Positions 40,869 to 47,902 of a stretch of 64,000 bases of DNA are shown here, in pieces (position 1 is the stretch's first letter; each line of letters starts with the position of its first letter). The notes under the pieces are model-generated. The model saw only the letters and a list, made by a program, of their open reading frames with translations, was not told the DNA's origin and made no database searches. The DNA comes from Sphingomonadales bacterium UBA2369 (GTDB taxonomy: Bacteria > Pseudomonadota > Alphaproteobacteria > Sphingomonadales > Sphingomonadaceae): contig DDTH01000007.1 of NCBI GenBank assembly GCA_002344055.1, positions 30,415 to 94,414 on the forward strand, read 5' to 3'. Both the position numbers and the translations under genes were made by a program.

Positions 40869-42617
40869 GTGACCGCGACTGCTGATTCCGAAGGCCCGAC
40901 GCCCACCCCGACCGACGACGGCAGTGTCCGCCGCTATGCGGATTTCGGCACGTTGGGCGAAGCGCTCGATTATGCGGCGCAGGGAAAACGCGGCCTGAAT
41001 TTTCACGATGCCCGCGCGCGGTTGGAGCGCGCCTACCCCTATTCGAAGCTGCGCACCGACGCGCTCGCCGCCGCCCGCCGTCTGATCGCGCGCGGGGTGA
41101 AGCCGGGTGATCGCATCGCGCTCATTGCGGAGACAGTGCCGGAATTCACCGCTCTGTTCTTCGGCGCTGTCTATGCTGGCGCCTGGCCAGTGCCGTTGCC
41201 GCTGCCGACCAGCTTCGGCGGCGCGCAGAGCTATATCGACCAGCTGAAGGTCCAGCTGGGCAGTTCCGATCCGAAATTGCTCTTCTGGCCGCCATCGCTG
41301 GCCGTCATGGCTTCGGCCGCGGCCGAGGAGGCCGGGGTCGAAGGGCTCGACTGGGCCGCGTTCGCGGCGGAGCCCGATGTCGAGGCGAAGCTGCCGGAAA
41401 TGCAGCCCGACGACATCGCCTATCTGCAATATTCGAGCGGCTCGACCCGCTTCCCGCATGGCGTGATCATCACGCATCGCCAGCTGCTCAGCAATCTGGC
41501 GGCGCACAGCCACGGCATGAAATTGGGCGATGGCGACCGCGGCGTTTCGTGGCTGCCTTTCTATCACGACATGGGCCTGGTCGGCTGTCTGCTCTCGCCG
41601 GTCGCAAACCAGATGAGCGCCGATTATCTGAAGACCGAGGATTTTGCGCGCCGTCCGCTCGCCTGGCTCGACCTGATCAGCCGCCACGACGGCACGACGA
41701 TGAGCTATGCGCCGACCTTCGGCTACGACATCTGCGCGCGCCGCGTCTCCACCCAGATCGACGTCGCCGAGCGTTTCGACCTCTCCCGCTGGCGGGTTGC
41801 GGGCAATGGCGCGGACATGATCCGCCCGGATGTCATGCAGAATTTCGTCGATATTTTCGCGCCCGCCGGTTTCAACGCTAAGGCCTTCCTGCCGAGCTAC
41901 GGTCTCGCGGAAGCCACCCTCGCCGTCTCGATCATGCCGCCGGGCGAGGGCATCGTCGTCGAATTGGTCGAGGAAACGCTCCTCGCGGGCGGCACCGCTG
42001 GCGAGCGCAACCGGCCGCAGCGCTACCGGGCGATCGTCAATTGCGGCAAGCCGGCACTCGGCATGGAAATCGAGATCCGCTCCGAAGCCGGCGACGCGCT
42101 GGCCGAGCGCGAGATCGGCAAGGTCTGGTGCCGGGGCACGTCGGTGATGAGCGGCTATTTCCGCGACGATGAGGCCACCGCCGCCTGCATGGCCGACGGC
42201 TGGCTGGACACGGGCGACATGGGCTACCTCAGCGACGGCTACATCTACATTGTCGGCCGCGCCAAGGACATGATCATTATCAACGGCAAGAATCACTGGC
42301 CACAGGATATCGAGTGGGCGGTGGAGCAATTGCCGGGCTTCAAGGCGGGCGACATCGCCGCTTTCTCGATCACCACGCAGGGCGGCGAAGAGACCCCGGC
42401 GGTGCTGGTCCAATGCCGCACCTCGGACCTGCAGGAGCGCGGCAAACTGAAGGAATTGATCCGCGAACGCGTCCGCGCCGTCACCGGCATCAATTGCGTG
42501 ATCGAACTGATCCCGCCGCGGTCACTGCCGCGCACGAGTTCGGGGAAGCTTTCGCGGGCGAAGGCGCGGAAACTGTATCTGGAGGGCGAAATCCAGACCT
42601 ACGACATCGCGGCGTAG
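40869..42617 (+). CDS. Fatty acyl-AMP ligase (FAAL)
   Basis: YLQYSSGSTRFPHG, SWLPFYHDMGL, PSYGLAEATL, WLDTGD, GRAKD, PRTSSGK. Confidence 0.9.
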   Translation: MTATADSEGPTPTPTDDGSVRRYADFGTLGEALDYAAQGKRGLNFHDARARLERAYPYSKLRTDALAAARRLIARGVKPGDRIALIAETVPEFTALFFGAVYAGAWPVPLPLPTSFGGAQSYIDQLKVQLGSSDPKLLFWPPSLAVMASAAAEEAGVEGLDWAAFAAEPDVEAKLPEMQPDDIAYLQYSSGSTRFPHGVIITHRQLLSNLAAHSHGMKLGDGDRGVSWLPFYHDMGLVGCLLSPVANQMSADYLKTEDFARRPLAWLDLISRHDGTTMSYAPTFGYDICARRVSTQIDVAERFDLSRWRVAGNGADMIRPDVMQNFVDIFAPAGFNAKAFLPSYGLAEATLAVSIMPPGEGIVVELVEETLLAGGTAGERNRPQRYRAIVNCGKPALGMEIEIRSEAGDALAEREIGKVWCRGTSVMSGYFRDDEATAACMADGWLDTGDMGYLSDGYIYIVGRAKDMIIINGKNHWPQDIEWAVEQLPGFKAGDIAAFSITTQGGEETPAVLVQCRTSDLQERGKLKELIRERVRAVTGINCVIELIPPRSLPRTSSGKLSRAKARKLYLEGEIQTYDIAA

Positions 42618-43253
42618 CTAGCGCCTGGAGACGCCTCGTGCCTCCGTTGGCGCCGGGTCGCCCGGATCCGCCGAGAGACGGAACACGAAGAAAGGCGGCG
42701 GCGGCGTGTCGCTGTCGAGGCTGGCCATCGTCCGGTCCGCGGCCGGGCGGACATGGTCAAGGCCGGTTGCGATGCAAAAGCCTTCGCCATCCTCCTGCCG
42801 TTCGGCACGGTCCTCGGGAGCGCAGAGCAAGGGAAATACTTCCAGCAGATGCTCGCCGACCCTGGCGATGCCGATCATATAGGCTTCGCCATTGCCGAAT
42901 TCGCCGAGATAATGGCCCGACCGGATCGGGATCAGCCGCGCCTCGATGACGCCGTGCCCAGGCGACGACATTTCGTAGGTATGATCCTCCCACTTGCTGA
43001 TCGAGCCGGTCGAGCCGGCCTGGCCCGTGGCGGGATCAACCTCGCAGAAGTGAACGACATCGCCCTCCACCGGATAGGTCAGACACCGCTCGCGCTGGTC
43101 CCGCGGTAGGCGCGCGGCCAGCCGGGTCTCGATCAATTGCGTGAAGCGGGTCGCACGCGATTCCGTCACTTCATGGCCATCGCCGAGCACAGGCTGCTCG
43201 GAAACATAACAGCCGCCCAGCAGCGCGGCGGCAAAAAGCGGCCAACAACGCAT
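42618..43253 (-). CDS. Hypothetical lipoprotein
   Basis: Lipobox LLGGC followed by YVSEQPV; divergent from the Zn-PLC-like gene. Confidence 0.65.
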   Translation of the reverse strand: MRCWPLFAAALLGGCYVSEQPVLGDGHEVTESRATRFTQLIETRLAARLPRDQRERCLTYPVEGDVVHFCEVDPATGQAGSTGSISKWEDHTYEMSSPGHGVIEARLIPIRSGHYLGEFGNGEAYMIGIARVGEHLLEVFPLLCAPEDRAERQEDGEGFCIATGLDHVRPAADRTMASLDSDTPPPPFFVFRLSADPGDPAPTEARGVSRR

Positions 43254-43369
43254 GCATTGCCCCCCGGTCTGCCCGCATCGACCGCGATCGGGCAGTCGCG
43301 GGAGCATATACAGGGGCGGTGAAGCTTGATAGCCCATGGCGGTCGGCGTGGATGGGGGGTCTCGCGCTT

Positions 43370-45952
43370 ATGCGGTCTCGCGGGGGGAAAAGGCGGCCGG
43401 TCAGGCTGTTCTTGGCATCGGCCATTTCGCTTTCGATATGGTGTGCGTCGAGTCCCGCCGCAGCGTGGGGGCTGAAAACACATGTCTGGATCGCGCGAGA
43501 GGTGATCGCCGACGTCAGCGATGACGGCGCCGTCACCATCGCCGGGCGGCGATACCGTGTCCCCTTGAACGTGCGGCGGGCCATTCAGGAACATCCGGAG
43601 CTGTTCATCGCCGGCGCGCTGGGCCCGGACGTCTATCCGGACCCGCTTGCCGGACAGACGACGACCCATCCCGGGGTCGAGAATGGCTGGCAGGCCGACG
43701 ATTGGCTGCGGTGGATCAGCCGGACCGGAAGCGCCTACGATCTGGCGGCCGATTCCGATGAGGTGCGGGACGATGCCGAAGGCCTGCGGCGGGTCGCCTT
43801 CGTCTACGGGTTCAACGCCCATTTCGCCGGGGACATTTTTGCCCACAGCTATGTGAATGCCTATTCCGGCGGCACGTTCGATCTGCTCGACGGCGAACAG
43901 GATGTGGAGCGCCGGCACGCCATCCTGGAACGCTATATCGACGCGCATTTGCCGCCCCCCGCCGGGGGCGCGATTGCATCCGCCGACGGCATGCGCCCAC
44001 CGGTGGCATTCATCGCGGACCGGCTGATCCTGCAGAATGATGCCGGCGGCCAATATTTGCGGCCGCCAACCCTGCATTTGTGGGCGATGGGCGAGATGTA
44101 TCGCCGCACCGGCGACCTGGAATCCGGCCTGCGCGCGCTGGAAAAGCCGATCGACGATGCGATGGCAGCCTATGACCGAATTTACCGGACCTTGCAGGAT
44201 CAGGTGTTCGGCGCCCGCGCCCAGGTCCATATCGCACAGGAGGGTCTGGAGAATGCGCGCAGGGCGCTGCAGCTCAAGCGCGATATCCTGGCGGCGGCCG
44301 AGCAGAAGCTGCGCGAGGCGCTGACCCTGCTGAACGCGCCCGAGGCCGTGTATCGGCAGATCGAGGACCTGACCCAGAAAATCAAGCGGCTGCGGGAAGC
44401 GATCCGGCCGGAGGAAATCGTCCTGGACAATTTCGGAGCGCAATATCGCACGCTCCAGTCGGGCCTGACCAAGGCCTATGACAAGATCACCGATTTCATC
44501 TGCACGATCGTCGATCCGTTCGACTGGTTCGGGTGCGACCGGAAGCGCAACCGCCTGATCAGGGCCCATAACCGTATCGTGCGTAACCTGGATCGCCTCT
44601 GGAGCGCCTATCAACGCGCCTATCGCACGGTGGAAGACGCAATGCCGGAAATCCGTGAGGCCGAAGAAGAATTGATCGACCTGCGCCGCCGCTTTTCCGA
44701 AGCGACCCAGGGCATGGCCACGCAGGCGCTGCAACGCGCCGTAGACGTGGCCAATGCGGCAATCGATGCGCAGGAGTCCGTCGTCGCCTTTGCCGACAGG
44801 AGGCTCGCCGACCTTGGCCGGGCGCTCGAACGGGCCGAGGCCGAATTCGCGCCGGTCAGCGACATCATGGACCAGGCGCGGGAAGCGCTGAACATTTTCG
44901 GCACGATCCGCGCGCTGGTCAGCAATTGGCGCAACGACATGCGCATCGCCGCACGCCACTATGTCGAGGCGAGCTGGCGCGCCGGCTTCCTGATGTATCG
45001 CGGCGAGACCGGCGCGCTGTCGGAATATCTGCGCTGGTATCGCTGCTACGGCGCTGTGTTCGTGGGCGTGCCGCGCCAAGTGGGCGAGGCCGGCTGCCTG
45101 GCCGGCGACTTCGTCGTGAAGCTGCGGGACGAGTTCGACAGACTTTACGGCCGTCTGCCGGAGCCGCTGCGATGGCTGCTCAACCCGACGGGCGAGCTGA
45201 AGGACATGCTCAGGGAAAGGCTGGAGCCGCAGATCCAGGAAGCGACCACCCGCCTAGCCAATCTGATCGGCGAGCATAGTTCATTGGGCGAATTGATCAT
45301 CGTTCTCGGCTATCCGGAACTGGCCACGCGCGACCGGCTGAATCGCATCTATGCCACCGATCTTGGCGGCACCGGCCTGATCCGCTTCGACGACGCCGCC
45401 AGCCTGATCGAGGCCGATTCCGGCATGAACGTCGCGGGACGGGTCGATCCCCAGCGTTTCCCGGCGCTCGCGCATAGCGTGACGCTGGCAAAGCTCGCCC
45501 TCCTTGGCGACAGCGAGTTGAACCGGCTGATCCGCGATCTTTCCAATGGCTATGTCTCGCCGCGCTACGGCGCCAGCGTTTACCGGTTCCGCGAGCCGAA
45601 CCAGACGATCCTGCACGACATGGTCCGCAGCCTGGACGGCAATCATCAATGGCAGGCCTTCGGTCTGCCGCGCCCGCGCGCAGGCGGACCTGCGGAGACG
45701 CCGCGCGAGCTCCCGTTCGGGCGCAACGGCTTTGAAGACGGCAATAGGGGCTTGCGGATCTGGACCGACCCGGGCCTGCGCGAGCGCGTGTTCGCACGCC
45801 TGTTTCCTGGCGCGATCATCGGCTCGCTGGGTAATCGGCCGGAACTTCAGCGCCCGCTTTACCCCTTTCCCCATTGTCCTGAGAACCCGTTCCCCAGCGC
45901 CCAGGACGCCTCGGGAGCACTGCAATCGAGCGACCCTGGTTGTTCCGACTGA
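43370..45952 (+). CDS. Secreted zinc-dependent phospholipase C / P1-nuclease-fold protein with long coiled coil
   Basis: Signal peptide ending AAA-WGLKTH; GALGPD, THPG, NAHFAGDIFAH, RHAILE ligand set; start uncertain (43319 or 43370). Confidence 0.75.
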   Translation: MRSRGGKRRPVRLFLASAISLSIWCASSPAAAWGLKTHVWIAREVIADVSDDGAVTIAGRRYRVPLNVRRAIQEHPELFIAGALGPDVYPDPLAGQTTTHPGVENGWQADDWLRWISRTGSAYDLAADSDEVRDDAEGLRRVAFVYGFNAHFAGDIFAHSYVNAYSGGTFDLLDGEQDVERRHAILERYIDAHLPPPAGGAIASADGMRPPVAFIADRLILQNDAGGQYLRPPTLHLWAMGEMYRRTGDLESGLRALEKPIDDAMAAYDRIYRTLQDQVFGARAQVHIAQEGLENARRALQLKRDILAAAEQKLREALTLLNAPEAVYRQIEDLTQKIKRLREAIRPEEIVLDNFGAQYRTLQSGLTKAYDKITDFICTIVDPFDWFGCDRKRNRLIRAHNRIVRNLDRLWSAYQRAYRTVEDAMPEIREAEEELIDLRRRFSEATQGMATQALQRAVDVANAAIDAQESVVAFADRRLADLGRALERAEAEFAPVSDIMDQAREALNIFGTIRALVSNWRNDMRIAARHYVEASWRAGFLMYRGETGALSEYLRWYRCYGAVFVGVPRQVGEAGCLAGDFVVKLRDEFDRLYGRLPEPLRWLLNPTGELKDMLRERLEPQIQEATTRLANLIGEHSSLGELIIVLGYPELATRDRLNRIYATDLGGTGLIRFDDAASLIEADSGMNVAGRVDPQRFPALAHSVTLAKLALLGDSELNRLIRDLSNGYVSPRYGASVYRFREPNQTILHDMVRSLDGNHQWQAFGLPRPRAGGPAETPRELPFGRNGFEDGNRGLRIWTDPGLRERVFARLFPGAIIGSLGNRPELQRPLYPFPHCPENPFPSAQDASGALQSSDPGCSD

Positions 45953-45997
45953 GTCTCGGACTTCGGTCAGGGCCGAAAACAACGCGGAAAGCGCTGC

Positions 45998-47038
45998 TTA
46001 GGCGTTTGCGGAAGCCGCCTTCTTCGCCTCGCTGAATCCCACCAGCCGGCGCGTTTCCTCGCACCACAATTTCAGCCGAACGGCGCTGAGGCTCTGCCAC
46101 AGTGTCAGCCGGCTGACCTGATGCAATTCCGGCCGGGCGCGCAGCACCTTCGGCAGATTGTAAAAGGGTATGCGGCTGGAGAGGTGGTGCACATGGTGCA
46201 TGCCGATATTCGCGCTGATCCAGCGCAGCGGCTGGGGCAAAGCATAGTGGGAACTGCCGTGCAGCGCCGATTGGTGGAAATTCCAATCCTCGTCGCGGTC
46301 CCACACCGCACCTTCGAACTGGTGCTGAACGTAGAACAGCCAGACGCCTGCGGTCGCGGCAACGATGAGCACCGGCAAATATAGCAAGACGAACACCATC
46401 CAGCCCAGGAACACGATCATCAATGCAATCGCGCCGCCAATGAACACATTGGTGCTCATGGTGCTGGCCCATGGCTTCCAGCCCTTGCGCATCAGGCCGA
46501 GCGGCAGGCGGAACTGGAACAGAAACAGGAAGGCCGGGCCGAAACCGAACAGAATCAGCGGGTTGCGGTACAGGCGGTAGGCCAGCCGCTTACGCAGCGG
46601 CAGGGCGCGATATTCGTTCAGCGTCAGCGTCGCGACATCGCCCATCCCGCGCTTGTCGAGATTGCCGGTGGTGGCGTGATGCAGCGCATGCGAGCGCTTG
46701 AAATAATCGTAAGGCGTGAAGGTGAAGATGCCGATCACCCGGCCCACCCAATCGTTCGCGGCACGGCTGCGGAAGAACGAGCCGTGACCGCAATCATGCT
46801 GGATCATGAAGAGCCGGACCAGCAATGCCCCGGCGGGCACACACAGCACGATCGCCGTCCAAAAGCCGATCGCGAACAGCACCCACATGCCGAACAGCAG
46901 GCCGAGGAACGGGATCGCCGTCACCGCCAGTTCGAACAGGCTCCGGCCGGTGGAGGAACGCGCGAAAGCCGCGATCTCCCGGTGCAGGGCGCGCGGGTCC
47001 ATCGGCGCGGGCAAGCCGGCCGGGCTGTCTGTCGTCAT
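45998..47038 (-). CDS. Membrane fatty acid desaturase
   Basis: His boxes QHDCGH, HALHH, HHVHH. Confidence 0.92.
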   Translation of the reverse strand: MTTDSPAGLPAPMDPRALHREIAAFARSSTGRSLFELAVTAIPFLGLLFGMWVLFAIGFWTAIVLCVPAGALLVRLFMIQHDCGHGSFFRSRAANDWVGRVIGIFTFTPYDYFKRSHALHHATTGNLDKRGMGDVATLTLNEYRALPLRKRLAYRLYRNPLILFGFGPAFLFLFQFRLPLGLMRKGWKPWASTMSTNVFIGGAIALMIVFLGWMVFVLLYLPVLIVAATAGVWLFYVQHQFEGAVWDRDEDWNFHQSALHGSSHYALPQPLRWISANIGMHHVHHLSSRIPFYNLPKVLRARPELHQVSRLTLWQSLSAVRLKLWCEETRRLVGFSEAKKAASANA

Positions 47039-47048
47039 CGAGGCGTGC

Positions 47049-47270
47049 TTATTCGGCGGCCATGACCGGCATCGACGCCGCCGCCGCTGCCGCCTTCATC
47101 CGTTCGGTCTGCTCGCGGCTCTGCTCGTGCCGCTCGGCCCGCTCGGCCATTTGCGTCCATGCCTCAGCGGAGCGCAGGCAGCGTTCGCGGACATTGGCCA
47201 GCGCCGCGGCTTGCGCCTGCGCTTCCATGGCCCGGGCCTGGGTACGAAAAAACTCCGCCTGATTGCTCAT
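47049..47270 (-). CDS. Small conserved hypothetical helical protein
   Basis: LANVRERCLRSAEAWTQMAERAER pattern; clean ORF. Confidence 0.65.
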   Translation of the reverse strand: MSNQAEFFRTQARAMEAQAQAAALANVRERCLRSAEAWTQMAERAERHEQSREQTERMKAAAAAASMPVMAAE

Positions 47271-47518: not shown

Positions 47519-47902
47519 GTGCGCATCGCCATCCTTTTCGCGCCTTTGGCCCTGACCGCGTGCGGACTCGTGCAGAGCGAGCCCGAGGTCGAATATACCG
47601 AGACCAAGGGCCGCGTCGTGACCGTCAAGGATCAGTGCGAACTCGCCTTCCCGGACGGCAAGGGCGGCTCGGTCGGGCCGTGCAACGAAATCCTGCCCCG
47701 CTCCCGCGCGCAGGAGAATCGGGCCGCGACCGTCTATCGCAAGCTGGAGGTCACCTACGCCTACACCTCTCCCGCCGATGGCCAGATCTACCAGGGCAAG
47801 AATGACGTGCAGCAGCCCTTGTCGTCGCACGTGCCCCGGCCGGGCGAAAGCGTGGATGTCGAGGCGCACCCGCAGCACGCCATGGTCAGCCGCCTGCGCT
47901 AG
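47519..47902 (+). CDS. Hypothetical lipoprotein
   Basis: Lipobox LTACG; GTG start after GGAG. Confidence 0.65.
   Translation: MRIAILFAPLALTACGLVQSEPEVEYTETKGRVVTVKDQCELAFPDGKGGSVGPCNEILPRSRAQENRAATVYRKLEVTYAYTSPADGQIYQGKNDVQQPLSSHVPRPGESVDVEAHPQHAMVSRLR

Follow-up and report, generated by a model that had tools for sequence, protein, structure and literature searches.

Bacterial zinc-dependent phospholipases C (PLCs) are known mainly as toxins of Gram-positive pathogens, and in phospholipase C, as in P1 nuclease, it is the free amino terminus that binds zinc. The relationship between the two families has been reviewed, with the zinc site and the fold common to both (PMC3482391). The present study concerns a gene of this superfamily at positions 43370–45952 (+) of a 64,000-nucleotide stretch of DNA from Sphingomonadales bacterium UBA2369, which as a whole is referred to as the window. 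The encoded protein consists of four parts: a signal peptide, a PF00882 domain, a two-helix stalk with a Cys loop and a 320-residue C-terminal domain. The combination of a PLC-type head, a predicted hairpin stapled at its apex and a domain without a structural relative is undescribed in the searchable literature, in which no publication on these proteins was found; the catalytic superfamily itself is well known.

Focusing on the catalytic domain, the protein resembles the bacterial zinc PLCs (Bacillus cereus PC-PLC, Listeria PlcB and the N-domain of clostridial alpha-toxin) in its PF00882 match, its predicted signal peptide, a catalytic domain modelled as all-helical and an aromatic first mature residue that is followed by H, D, H, H, D, H, H and E in the same order. 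However, the first His lies at mature position 6 and the central motif reads H-x3-D-x3-H in the present protein, whereas the corresponding features of the bacterial PLCs are a first His at positions 11–14 and H-x3-D-x5-H; moreover, those enzymes have neither a coiled-coil hairpin nor a C-terminal domain of this kind, and alpha-toxin has a C2-like β-domain instead. The eukaryotic branch of PF00882 is represented by glycosylphosphatidylinositol (GPI)-specific phospholipase D (GPLD1), the chain of which continues into a β-propeller. The elements x-G-L-x-T-H, G-x-x-x-P-D and H-x3-D-x3-H are common to the two proteins, and an hhalign comparison of our N-domain profile with a provisional sequence of the human GPLD1 N-terminus, which is to be read as a lead only, gave a probability of 86% and E = 4.8e-6 over the first 98 columns only. 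Unlike GPLD1, the model of the present protein contains no β-rich propeller region, residues 544–860 being predicted as mostly helices and loops. GPI-specific phospholipase D is a secreted zinc enzyme that cleaves a glycolipid phosphodiester (PMC3634480).

The stalk finds its parallels elsewhere. Colicin Ia and the E-type colicins also possess an antiparallel two-helix hairpin of comparable length, which parts the apex from functional domains at the base, and in colicin Ia this hairpin probably allows the periplasm to be bridged. Colicin Ia (PDB entry 1cii) gave a weak sequence match over the stalk (E = 0.005), which reflects coiled-coil composition. The colicins lack a signal peptide, whereas one is predicted here, and the apex of colicin Ia is a folded receptor-binding domain as opposed to the 10-residue loop of the present protein. 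A jointed antiparallel coiled coil with a small apex element and two globular parts meeting at its base is likewise found in the arms of SMC, MukB and Rad50 and in the dynein stalk. These, however, are cytoplasmic ATPases with unrelated heads, they bear a hinge, a zinc hook or a microtubule-binding domain at the apex, and the likeness extends to the coiled coil only. The cytoplasmic Rad50 zinc hook in particular has a CxxC motif, in contrast to C-x10-C here, often four to eight Cys in the homologues, and predicted export.

Catalytic domain, translation start and export

The PF00882 match, ligand conservation and the AlphaFold model identify residues 33–234 (43466–44071, +) as a predicted catalytic domain of the zinc phospholipase C superfamily. 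Pfam family PF00882 (Zn_dep_PLPC) matched residues 37–191 with 38.7 bits against a cut-off of 26.8, and it scored above this cut-off in most of the 24 homologues that were scanned, with three near or below it (24.1, 23.7 and a borderline 26.8). In the Pfam scan no enzyme family other than PF00882 was matched, and the S1-P1 nuclease model PF02265 gave no match at E up to 1. The candidate ligands are Trp33 at the mature N-terminus together with His38, Asp87, His100, His151, Asp155, His159, His183 and Glu187. The eight side-chain ligands are invariant in a first alignment and are retained in 140–143 of the 150 sequences of a second one, in which the remainder are mostly fragment gaps. These residues would bind zinc, and their allotment to individual zinc ions is made by analogy. 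The catalytic domain is modelled as all-helical, with a predicted local distance difference test (pLDDT) score of 82–95 save in the loop 121–133.

A preliminary description of this DNA, made from the sequence alone, had proposed a tri-zinc domain of the PLC/P1 type with a free N-terminal aromatic residue, and the PF00882 score, the ligand conservation and the cleavage-site pattern described below bear this out. The elements that it had listed, namely WGLKTH, GPD (Asp87), His100, HFAGDIFAH (His151, Asp155 and His159) and RRHAILE (His183 and Glu187), are all present.

The open frame spans 43319–45952 (+) and, from the ATG at 43370, encodes 860 residues. This ATG is the start favoured by the homologues over the public gene call (P0002), which begins with a GTG at Val45, gives a protein of 816 residues and thus loses the segment 43370–43501 with the signal peptide and the candidate ligands Trp33 and His38; such a truncated call, with two catalytic ligands dropped, matters to anyone mining the family. 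A 93%-identical variant from another assembly (P0164) is called longer, with 842 residues. The genome contains a single PF00882 gene, which scored 41.5 bits in a profile search of the whole genome. A scan for promoters and terminators returned nothing interpretable.

Residues 1–32 (43370–43465, +) are predicted to form a Sec-type signal peptide with a signal peptidase I cut at A-A-A/W33. The presequence MRSRGGKRRPVRLFLASAISLSIWCASSPAAA comprises a basic n-region, a hydrophobic core and the A-A-A site, after which the mature protein would begin with WGLKTH. Among 132 homologues with a median presequence of 26 residues, 112 have Ala at position −1, and Ala, Val, Ser, Thr or Gly is found at −3; the +1 residue, five positions before the first His, is Phe in 90, Trp in 37 and Tyr in five (Phe, Trp or Tyr in 132 of 140 homologues). 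Because the cleavage pattern recurs in these 132 homologues, a predicted signal peptidase I cut exactly at the first zinc-ligand residue is a family rule. Export by the Tat pathway, prompted by the KRRPVRL segment, was considered and rejected; the homologues lack a twin-arginine motif, and three disulfide pairs suit the Sec pathway.

Stalk, apex loop and C-terminal domain

The catalytic domain is followed by two long helical arms. Arm 1, residues 235–376 (44072–44497, +), is a heptad-periodic helix with a break at Pro324 (codon 44339), and arm 2, residues 390–543 (44537–44998, +), is helical with a break at Gln447–Ala453, where Gly448 (codon 44711) lies opposite Pro324; both assignments come from the AlphaFold model and from sequence periodicity. 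The model of the whole protein, calculated from an alignment of 12 sequences with a mean pLDDT of 75.5 and a predicted template-modelling score (pTM) of 0.66, places helices at 235–322 and 324–376, a loop at 377–388 and helices at 389–447 and 453–543. The hydrophobic periodicity of arm 1 is 3.5 residues, a value reached by none of 2000 shuffled sequences, and that of arm 2 is 3.6 residues, reached by five of 2000. In a Foldseek search with the whole model, the best PDB matches were the intramolecular antiparallel coiled coils of the MukB head and elbow, SMC arms, dynein stalks and chemoreceptor hairpins, with query-normalized TM-scores of 0.07–0.17. NCBIfam models of SMC, Rad50 and DndD matched residues 246–510 far below their cut-offs, as is typical of coiled-coil composition, and a profile of the whole protein searched against the PDB sequences yielded coiled-coil noise only.

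The homologues provide evidence for the hairpin that is separate from the model. When arm 1 is measured between the last zinc ligand and the first stalk Cys, and arm 2 between the last stalk Cys and the conserved Trp556, the two lengths co-vary (Pearson r = 0.83, slope 0.86, n = 150 homologues) while the total linker length spans 128 to 507 residues; the Cys cluster is therefore always at the midpoint, as the apex of a hairpin must be. Column conservation is 0.18–0.19 in the arms against 0.44–0.47 in the two globular parts, and such low conservation of the arms is what a structural spacer shows at the level of the sequence. If straight, arms of about 140 residues, each residue adding about 0.15 nm, would make a rod of about 20 nm. 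The preliminary description had claimed an antiparallel helical stalk of roughly 18–20 nm with long helices on either side of the Cys loop, and had named structure prediction and a survey of stalk length among homologues as ways to check it. The AlphaFold model does show the hairpin, with its helices at the positions given above, the structure matches are coiled coils, and both arms vary together over the whole range of linker lengths, all of which agrees with that claim, at a length of about 18–21 nm.

The rod is probably not uniform along its length. The model breaks at 322–324 and 447–453, where the pLDDT is below 50, with low confidence over 446–454; Pro324 precedes Cys378 by 54 residues, and Gly448 follows Cys389 by 59. 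A peak of Pro residues at 51–55 residues ahead of the first tip Cys is found in 18 of 67 long-stalk homologues. Since the model breaks at these points, Pro324 and Gly448 face each other and the Pro peak recurs, the stalk probably contains a joint about 8 nm from its tip.

The apex loop, I377-C378-TIVDPFDWFG-C389 (44498–44536, +), is predicted to be a disulfide-stapled tip on the basis of its codons and of Cys conservation; Cys378 and Cys389 flank TIVDPFDWFG at codons 44501 and 44534, exactly as first described. In the alignment of 150 homologues, Cys378 is matched by Cys in 105 and Cys389 in 98. By an alignment-free count over the central linker, 174 of 209 members have two or more Cys, 33 have none and just two have a single one, and in the long-stalk class at least two linker Cys are present in 112 of 117. 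Linker Cys occur in even numbers (2, 4, 6, 8 or 10) in 111 proteins and in odd numbers in six, with 25 having none, and because even counts so outnumber odd ones there is strong indirect evidence for internal disulfides, predicted to form a small Cys-rich knot in some lineages. The spacing of these Cys residues ranges from three to more than 40 residues among the homologues.

The sequence held between the two Cys is not conserved: CTIVDPFDWFGC in the present protein compares with CTVIDPFGVSPC, CELIFWDAKKRKKC and CKNLPWPLDQLC in relatives and with CFLDPGTC in the short class. Relative to the flanking helices, the loops are enriched in Phe, Trp and Tyr (11% versus 4%) and in Pro (7.7% versus 2.1%), as well as in Gly, and 67 of 88 loops contain an aromatic residue. 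The tip studied here comprises 10 residues with three aromatics and two Asp, and its summed Wimley–White interfacial energy of about −1.3 kcal/mol would allow it to dock shallowly at an interface but not to span a membrane. With regard to the disulfide-locked aromatic tip of the preliminary description, the Cys-closed apex thus stands as a family feature, as the long-stalk class shows, whereas its aromatic character is only partly supported, given that loop sequence and length vary and the loops are merely enriched in Phe, Trp and Tyr. Hypervariability of the tip on short time scales was also considered, and it was rejected on finding an identical loop in the 93%-identical variant.

Residues 544–860 (44999–45949, +) constitute a conserved C-terminal domain without a known fold, delimited by conservation and by the AlphaFold model. 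It contains the Cys pairs Cys559/Cys576 and Cys836/Cys858, the latter being the two Cys with which the C-terminal part had been said to close, and the motif S754-x-D-G-N-H-Q-W761 at 45629–45652. Among the most conserved positions of the family are Trp556, Cys576, Asp756, Gly757, Gln760 and Trp761, which are kept in 96–100% of 150 homologues, and Lys708, Arg770 and Arg804 are kept in 90–94%. No Pfam or NCBIfam family matches residues 544–860. A separate AlphaFold model of residues 500–860, calculated from an 81-sequence alignment, has a pLDDT of 86.9 and a pTM of 0.77 and consists mostly of helices and long ordered loops; a Foldseek search with this model found no match, the best E values being 6.5 in the PDB and 0.94 in BFVD. 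A domain that is confidently modelled and has no match in the PDB is a target for structure determination. Because the hairpin returns the chain to the point where the catalytic domain ends, this point and the start of the C-terminal domain come to lie together, and we infer that the two domains probably form one head, in which the conserved polar residues may help to bind the substrate.

Family, accessory domains and genomic setting

The preliminary description had stated that no described protein has such an architecture. This holds for the searchable literature; the protein is not a one-off, however, since its family comprises more than 1200 sequence clusters. An exhaustive search of 1.84 billion cluster representatives (at 50% identity) gave 1232 matches at E ≤ 1e-3, 916 at E ≤ 1e-10 and 334 at E ≤ 1e-30, and word-indexed searches, for which either the protein or a profile of 150 sequences served as the query, gave at least 11–12 relatives among the matches listed. 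Most listed family members have 650–1300 residues and match the query at both ends. When each species was represented by one genome, 108 encoding stretches were identified, from which 76 loci were kept; their hosts are Alpha-, Beta- and Gammaproteobacteria, Bacteroidota, Nitrospirota, Planctomycetota, Myxococcota, Oligoflexia and Acidobacteriota, all of which are diderm.

Within the genus of the window, relatives occur in only four of 37 genomes, and three of these four carry a short-stalk form of 675–706 residues without the apex Cys. Examples of this short-stalk paralogue type are found in genomes G029 and G019 (locus L005, 1483–3510, −, and locus L006, 1483–3603, −), where the catalytic and C-terminal domains are the same and the linker is about 214 residues. 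The short-stalk type offers a natural 'stalk-reduced' comparison within the genus.

The relatives vary in their additional domains. Among 47 tails of 95–280 residues beyond the last Cys pair, SPOR was identified in 14, YARHG in seven and CARDB in three, with Ig, PKD and TSP3 in others, and about ten further tails, as judged by eye, are the SPOR module below threshold. Longer tails contain HYR and dockerin modules, and one relative (P0066) contains a class 3 lipase domain. Peptidoglycan is the ligand of SPOR domains (PMC7642682, PMC7822825). The proteins with a SPOR tail, from Microvirga, Azospirillum, Skermanella and Rhizobium, are the closest relatives of the window protein, at 36–40% identity. 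The linker differs with the type of add-on: forms with SPOR or YARHG are long (about 345–406 residues), and those with HYR or dockerin are short (178–214). These SPOR, YARHG, HYR/dockerin and lipase add-ons point to a predicted location in the cell envelope. The window protein itself contains no add-on domain and hence no sorting add-on, and for this reason its default location after Sec export is most likely to be the periplasm.

Two further kinds of tail were observed. In P0054 and at locus L021 (5776–8874), the tails contain two or three hydrophobic segments, one of them weakly MerC-like, which suggests a membrane-anchored enzyme. The tails of P0121 and P0138, with a Cys-Gly pair, a hydrophobic stretch and an Arg-rich end, resemble a Myxococcus-type C-terminal sorting signal.

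Clustering of the gene neighbourhoods of 76 loci gave no conserved partner; no gene family recurs beside 74 homologous loci beyond the shared synteny of close relatives, and a crude lipobox test found an adjoining lipoprotein in only seven of the 74. Many colicins, in contrast, are plasmid-borne together with an immunity gene. Since there is no recurrent neighbour across these loci, the enzyme appears to need no partner, immunity protein or secretion system dedicated to it.

In the window, the gene sits between a fatty-acyl-AMP-ligase-like gene (40869–42617, +), with an AMP-binding and a DIP2-like C-terminal domain, and a convergent membrane fatty acid desaturase gene (45998–47038, −). Comparison with locus L085 of the closest relative (genome G016) showed that a 3.4 kb segment, 42618–46026, is absent there; this segment contains only the zinc enzyme gene and a divergent lipoprotein gene. 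In the relative, the ligase protein is 97% and the desaturase 83% identical, and their genes are convergent neighbours with 48 bp between them. As the ligase and desaturase genes abut in this genome without the 3.4 kb segment, the closeness of the zinc enzyme gene to them is accidental; the conserved pair could be a lipid-modification pair unrelated to the zinc enzyme. At the junctions of the segment no repeats or mobile-element marks were seen, although no systematic search was made.

The divergent gene (42618–43253, −) encodes a predicted lipoprotein of 211 residues that starts with MRCWPLFAAALLGGC. No homologue was found in 36 genomes of the genus or among 5.8 billion proteins, so that either the gene is an orphan or its frame may have been mis-called. 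A role as a cognate inhibitor or immunity protein was considered and dropped, given its orphan status and the lack of a recurrent adjacent lipoprotein in the family. Between the desaturase gene and a PAS-GGDEF-EAL gene lie an open reading frame for a 73-residue protein rich in Ala, Glu and Arg (47049–47270, −) and one for a predicted lipoprotein of 127 residues with the lipobox LALTAC (47519–47902, +), neither of which belongs to a Pfam family.

Proposed mode of action and alternatives

In the model that we favour, and to which we give a little better than an even chance, the protein would be an envelope phosphodiesterase that is active only after removal of its signal peptide and that carries its head on a jointed rod about 20 nm long, whose tip docks and thereby sets where the head acts. 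The precursor would be exported by the Sec machinery and cut by signal peptidase I before Trp33, whereupon the new N-terminal residue would complete a three-zinc site; because this ligand arises by signal-peptide removal, the enzyme would be competent only outside the cytoplasm. The catalytic and C-terminal domains would meet, probably as one head, at the foot of an antiparallel coiled coil of two helices, whose arms of about 140 residues each would extend about 20 nm if straight and contain a conserved joint about 55–60 residues from the apex. At the apex, the short disulfide-stapled loop, rich in aromatic residues, Pro and Gly and differing between lineages, would dock on a membrane interface or on an envelope partner, with the stalk serving as a spacer or reach arm. 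The head would then act at a set distance from the docking point on a phosphodiester, most likely that of a phospholipid or glycolipid head group. The family has three conserved Cys pairs, two in the C-terminal domain and one at the apex, and conserved Cys in even numbers fit an oxidizing compartment. A lipid or glycolipid head group would be the favoured substrate on account of the PF00882 match, the Glu as last ligand, the fusion to a lipase and the absence of nucleic-acid-binding domains among the add-ons.

Several points weigh against this model, in which we infer zinc binding, the disulfides, the location, the lipid substrate and the role of the tip alike. A search of the PDB sequences with the family and N-domain profiles found no solved phospholipase C or P1 nuclease, and the 50 matches listed by Foldseek for the whole model were all driven by the stalk, being chiefly coiled-coil proteins, and so do not confirm the catalytic fold. 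The tip and the joint have a pLDDT below 50 in the AlphaFold model, and the statistics on arm length and Cys number count related sequences and not independent events. The evidence for a lipid substrate is thin, consisting of the PF00882 match, the one lipase fusion in P0066 and the lack of nucleic-acid-binding add-ons. Finally, HYR, dockerin and CARDB, which are present in some relatives, are surface or extracellular modules, and the periplasm is thus not the location of the whole family.

These same modules, together with the lipase found in one relative, would suit a secreted toxin that attacks membranes, with a tip that inserts into or crosses the target membrane as in the α-pore-forming toxins and a phospholipase head that damages it. 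The catalytic family includes cytolytic PLCs, the tip studied here has three aromatics within a family-wide enrichment of aromatic residues, and several of the hosts belong to lytic or predatory taxa (Myxococcota, Oligoflexia, Pseudoalteromonas and Saprospiraceae). We nevertheless consider a toxin quite unlikely: a loop of 10 residues with two Asp and only about −1.3 kcal/mol of interfacial energy is too short and too polar to span a bilayer, no toxin family or fold appears in Pfam, in NCBIfam or among the best 50 structure matches, the surroundings of the 74 loci contain no immunity-like or secretion gene, and the nearest relatives bear the peptidoglycan-binding SPOR domain. The tails of the Bacteroidota members extend fewer than 60 residues past the last conserved Cys, although no search for type IX sorting domains was made. 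The membrane crossing and the likeness to membrane-inserting toxin loops proposed in the preliminary description are not upheld in view of the properties of the loop and of the missing match to any toxin. A small probability likewise attaches to a nuclease or nucleotide phosphodiesterase of the S1/P1 type that works in the envelope or outside the cell and is not directed at lipids; the stalk would then hold the enzyme off the membranes of the cell itself. The zinc site and the fold, being those of the PLC and S1/P1 families alike (PMC3482391), accommodate such an enzyme, and the mature W-G-x-x-x-H has the Trp1/His6 spacing of the P1 and S1 nucleases. What speaks for a PLC instead is that PF00882 and no S1-P1 nuclease model is listed at E up to 1, that the last ligand is Glu as in the phospholipases C whereas P1 nuclease has Asp, that about 70 accessory tails contain a class 3 lipase and no nucleic-acid-binding domain, and that the N-terminal profile aligns with GPLD1 at 86% probability, which remains a lead only.

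The stalk could also be an element of assembly or control, with tips that join two molecules in the manner of the Rad50 zinc hook or with a fold-back at the joint that gates the active site. The conserved joint, with Pro324 opposite Gly448, and the Foldseek matches to the fold-back MukB elbow and to SMC arms are in keeping with this, as are the weak NCBIfam matches to SMC and Rad50 over the stalk and the two apex Cys on an antiparallel coiled coil, which recall the Rad50 hook. The SMC and Rad50 scores, however, are far under their cut-offs and look like coiled-coil composition, and a Cys spacing from three to more than 40 residues, with two, four, six or eight Cys, fits internal disulfides and not a CxxC metal hook. 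On this evidence we regard an assembly or control element as improbable.

In the boldest reading, the protein would be a periplasm-spanning 'enzyme on a ruler' gated by distance, with its stapled tip docked in one membrane or its head at the peptidoglycan as in the relatives with SPOR, and acting only on the opposite leaflet or only when the envelope spacing changes. The length of the head together with a rod of about 20 nm is roughly that of the gap between the inner and the outer membrane, and we put this reading forward only tentatively, as a rather unlikely one. If it is true, the protein would be a device for distance-gated lipid remodelling or envelope surveillance, with its C-terminal domain as a new fold that supplies substrate recognition. 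Cells control the size of their periplasm, and other envelope systems depend on it (PMC5736177, PMC5771553).

In conclusion, this study places the predicted chemistry of the zinc PLCs in a family of more than 1200 clusters from diderm bacteria of soil, rhizosphere, freshwater and marine habitats, the hosts of which include Rhizobium, Bradyrhizobium, Azospirillum, Nitrospira, Chryseobacterium and Pseudoalteromonas, and in an architecture unlike that of any studied enzyme. If the stalk does set a distance, these proteins would be a rare case of an enzyme whose reach is encoded by the length of a coiled coil, and the family would bear on how the cell uses the size of its periplasm (PMC5736177, PMC5771553).

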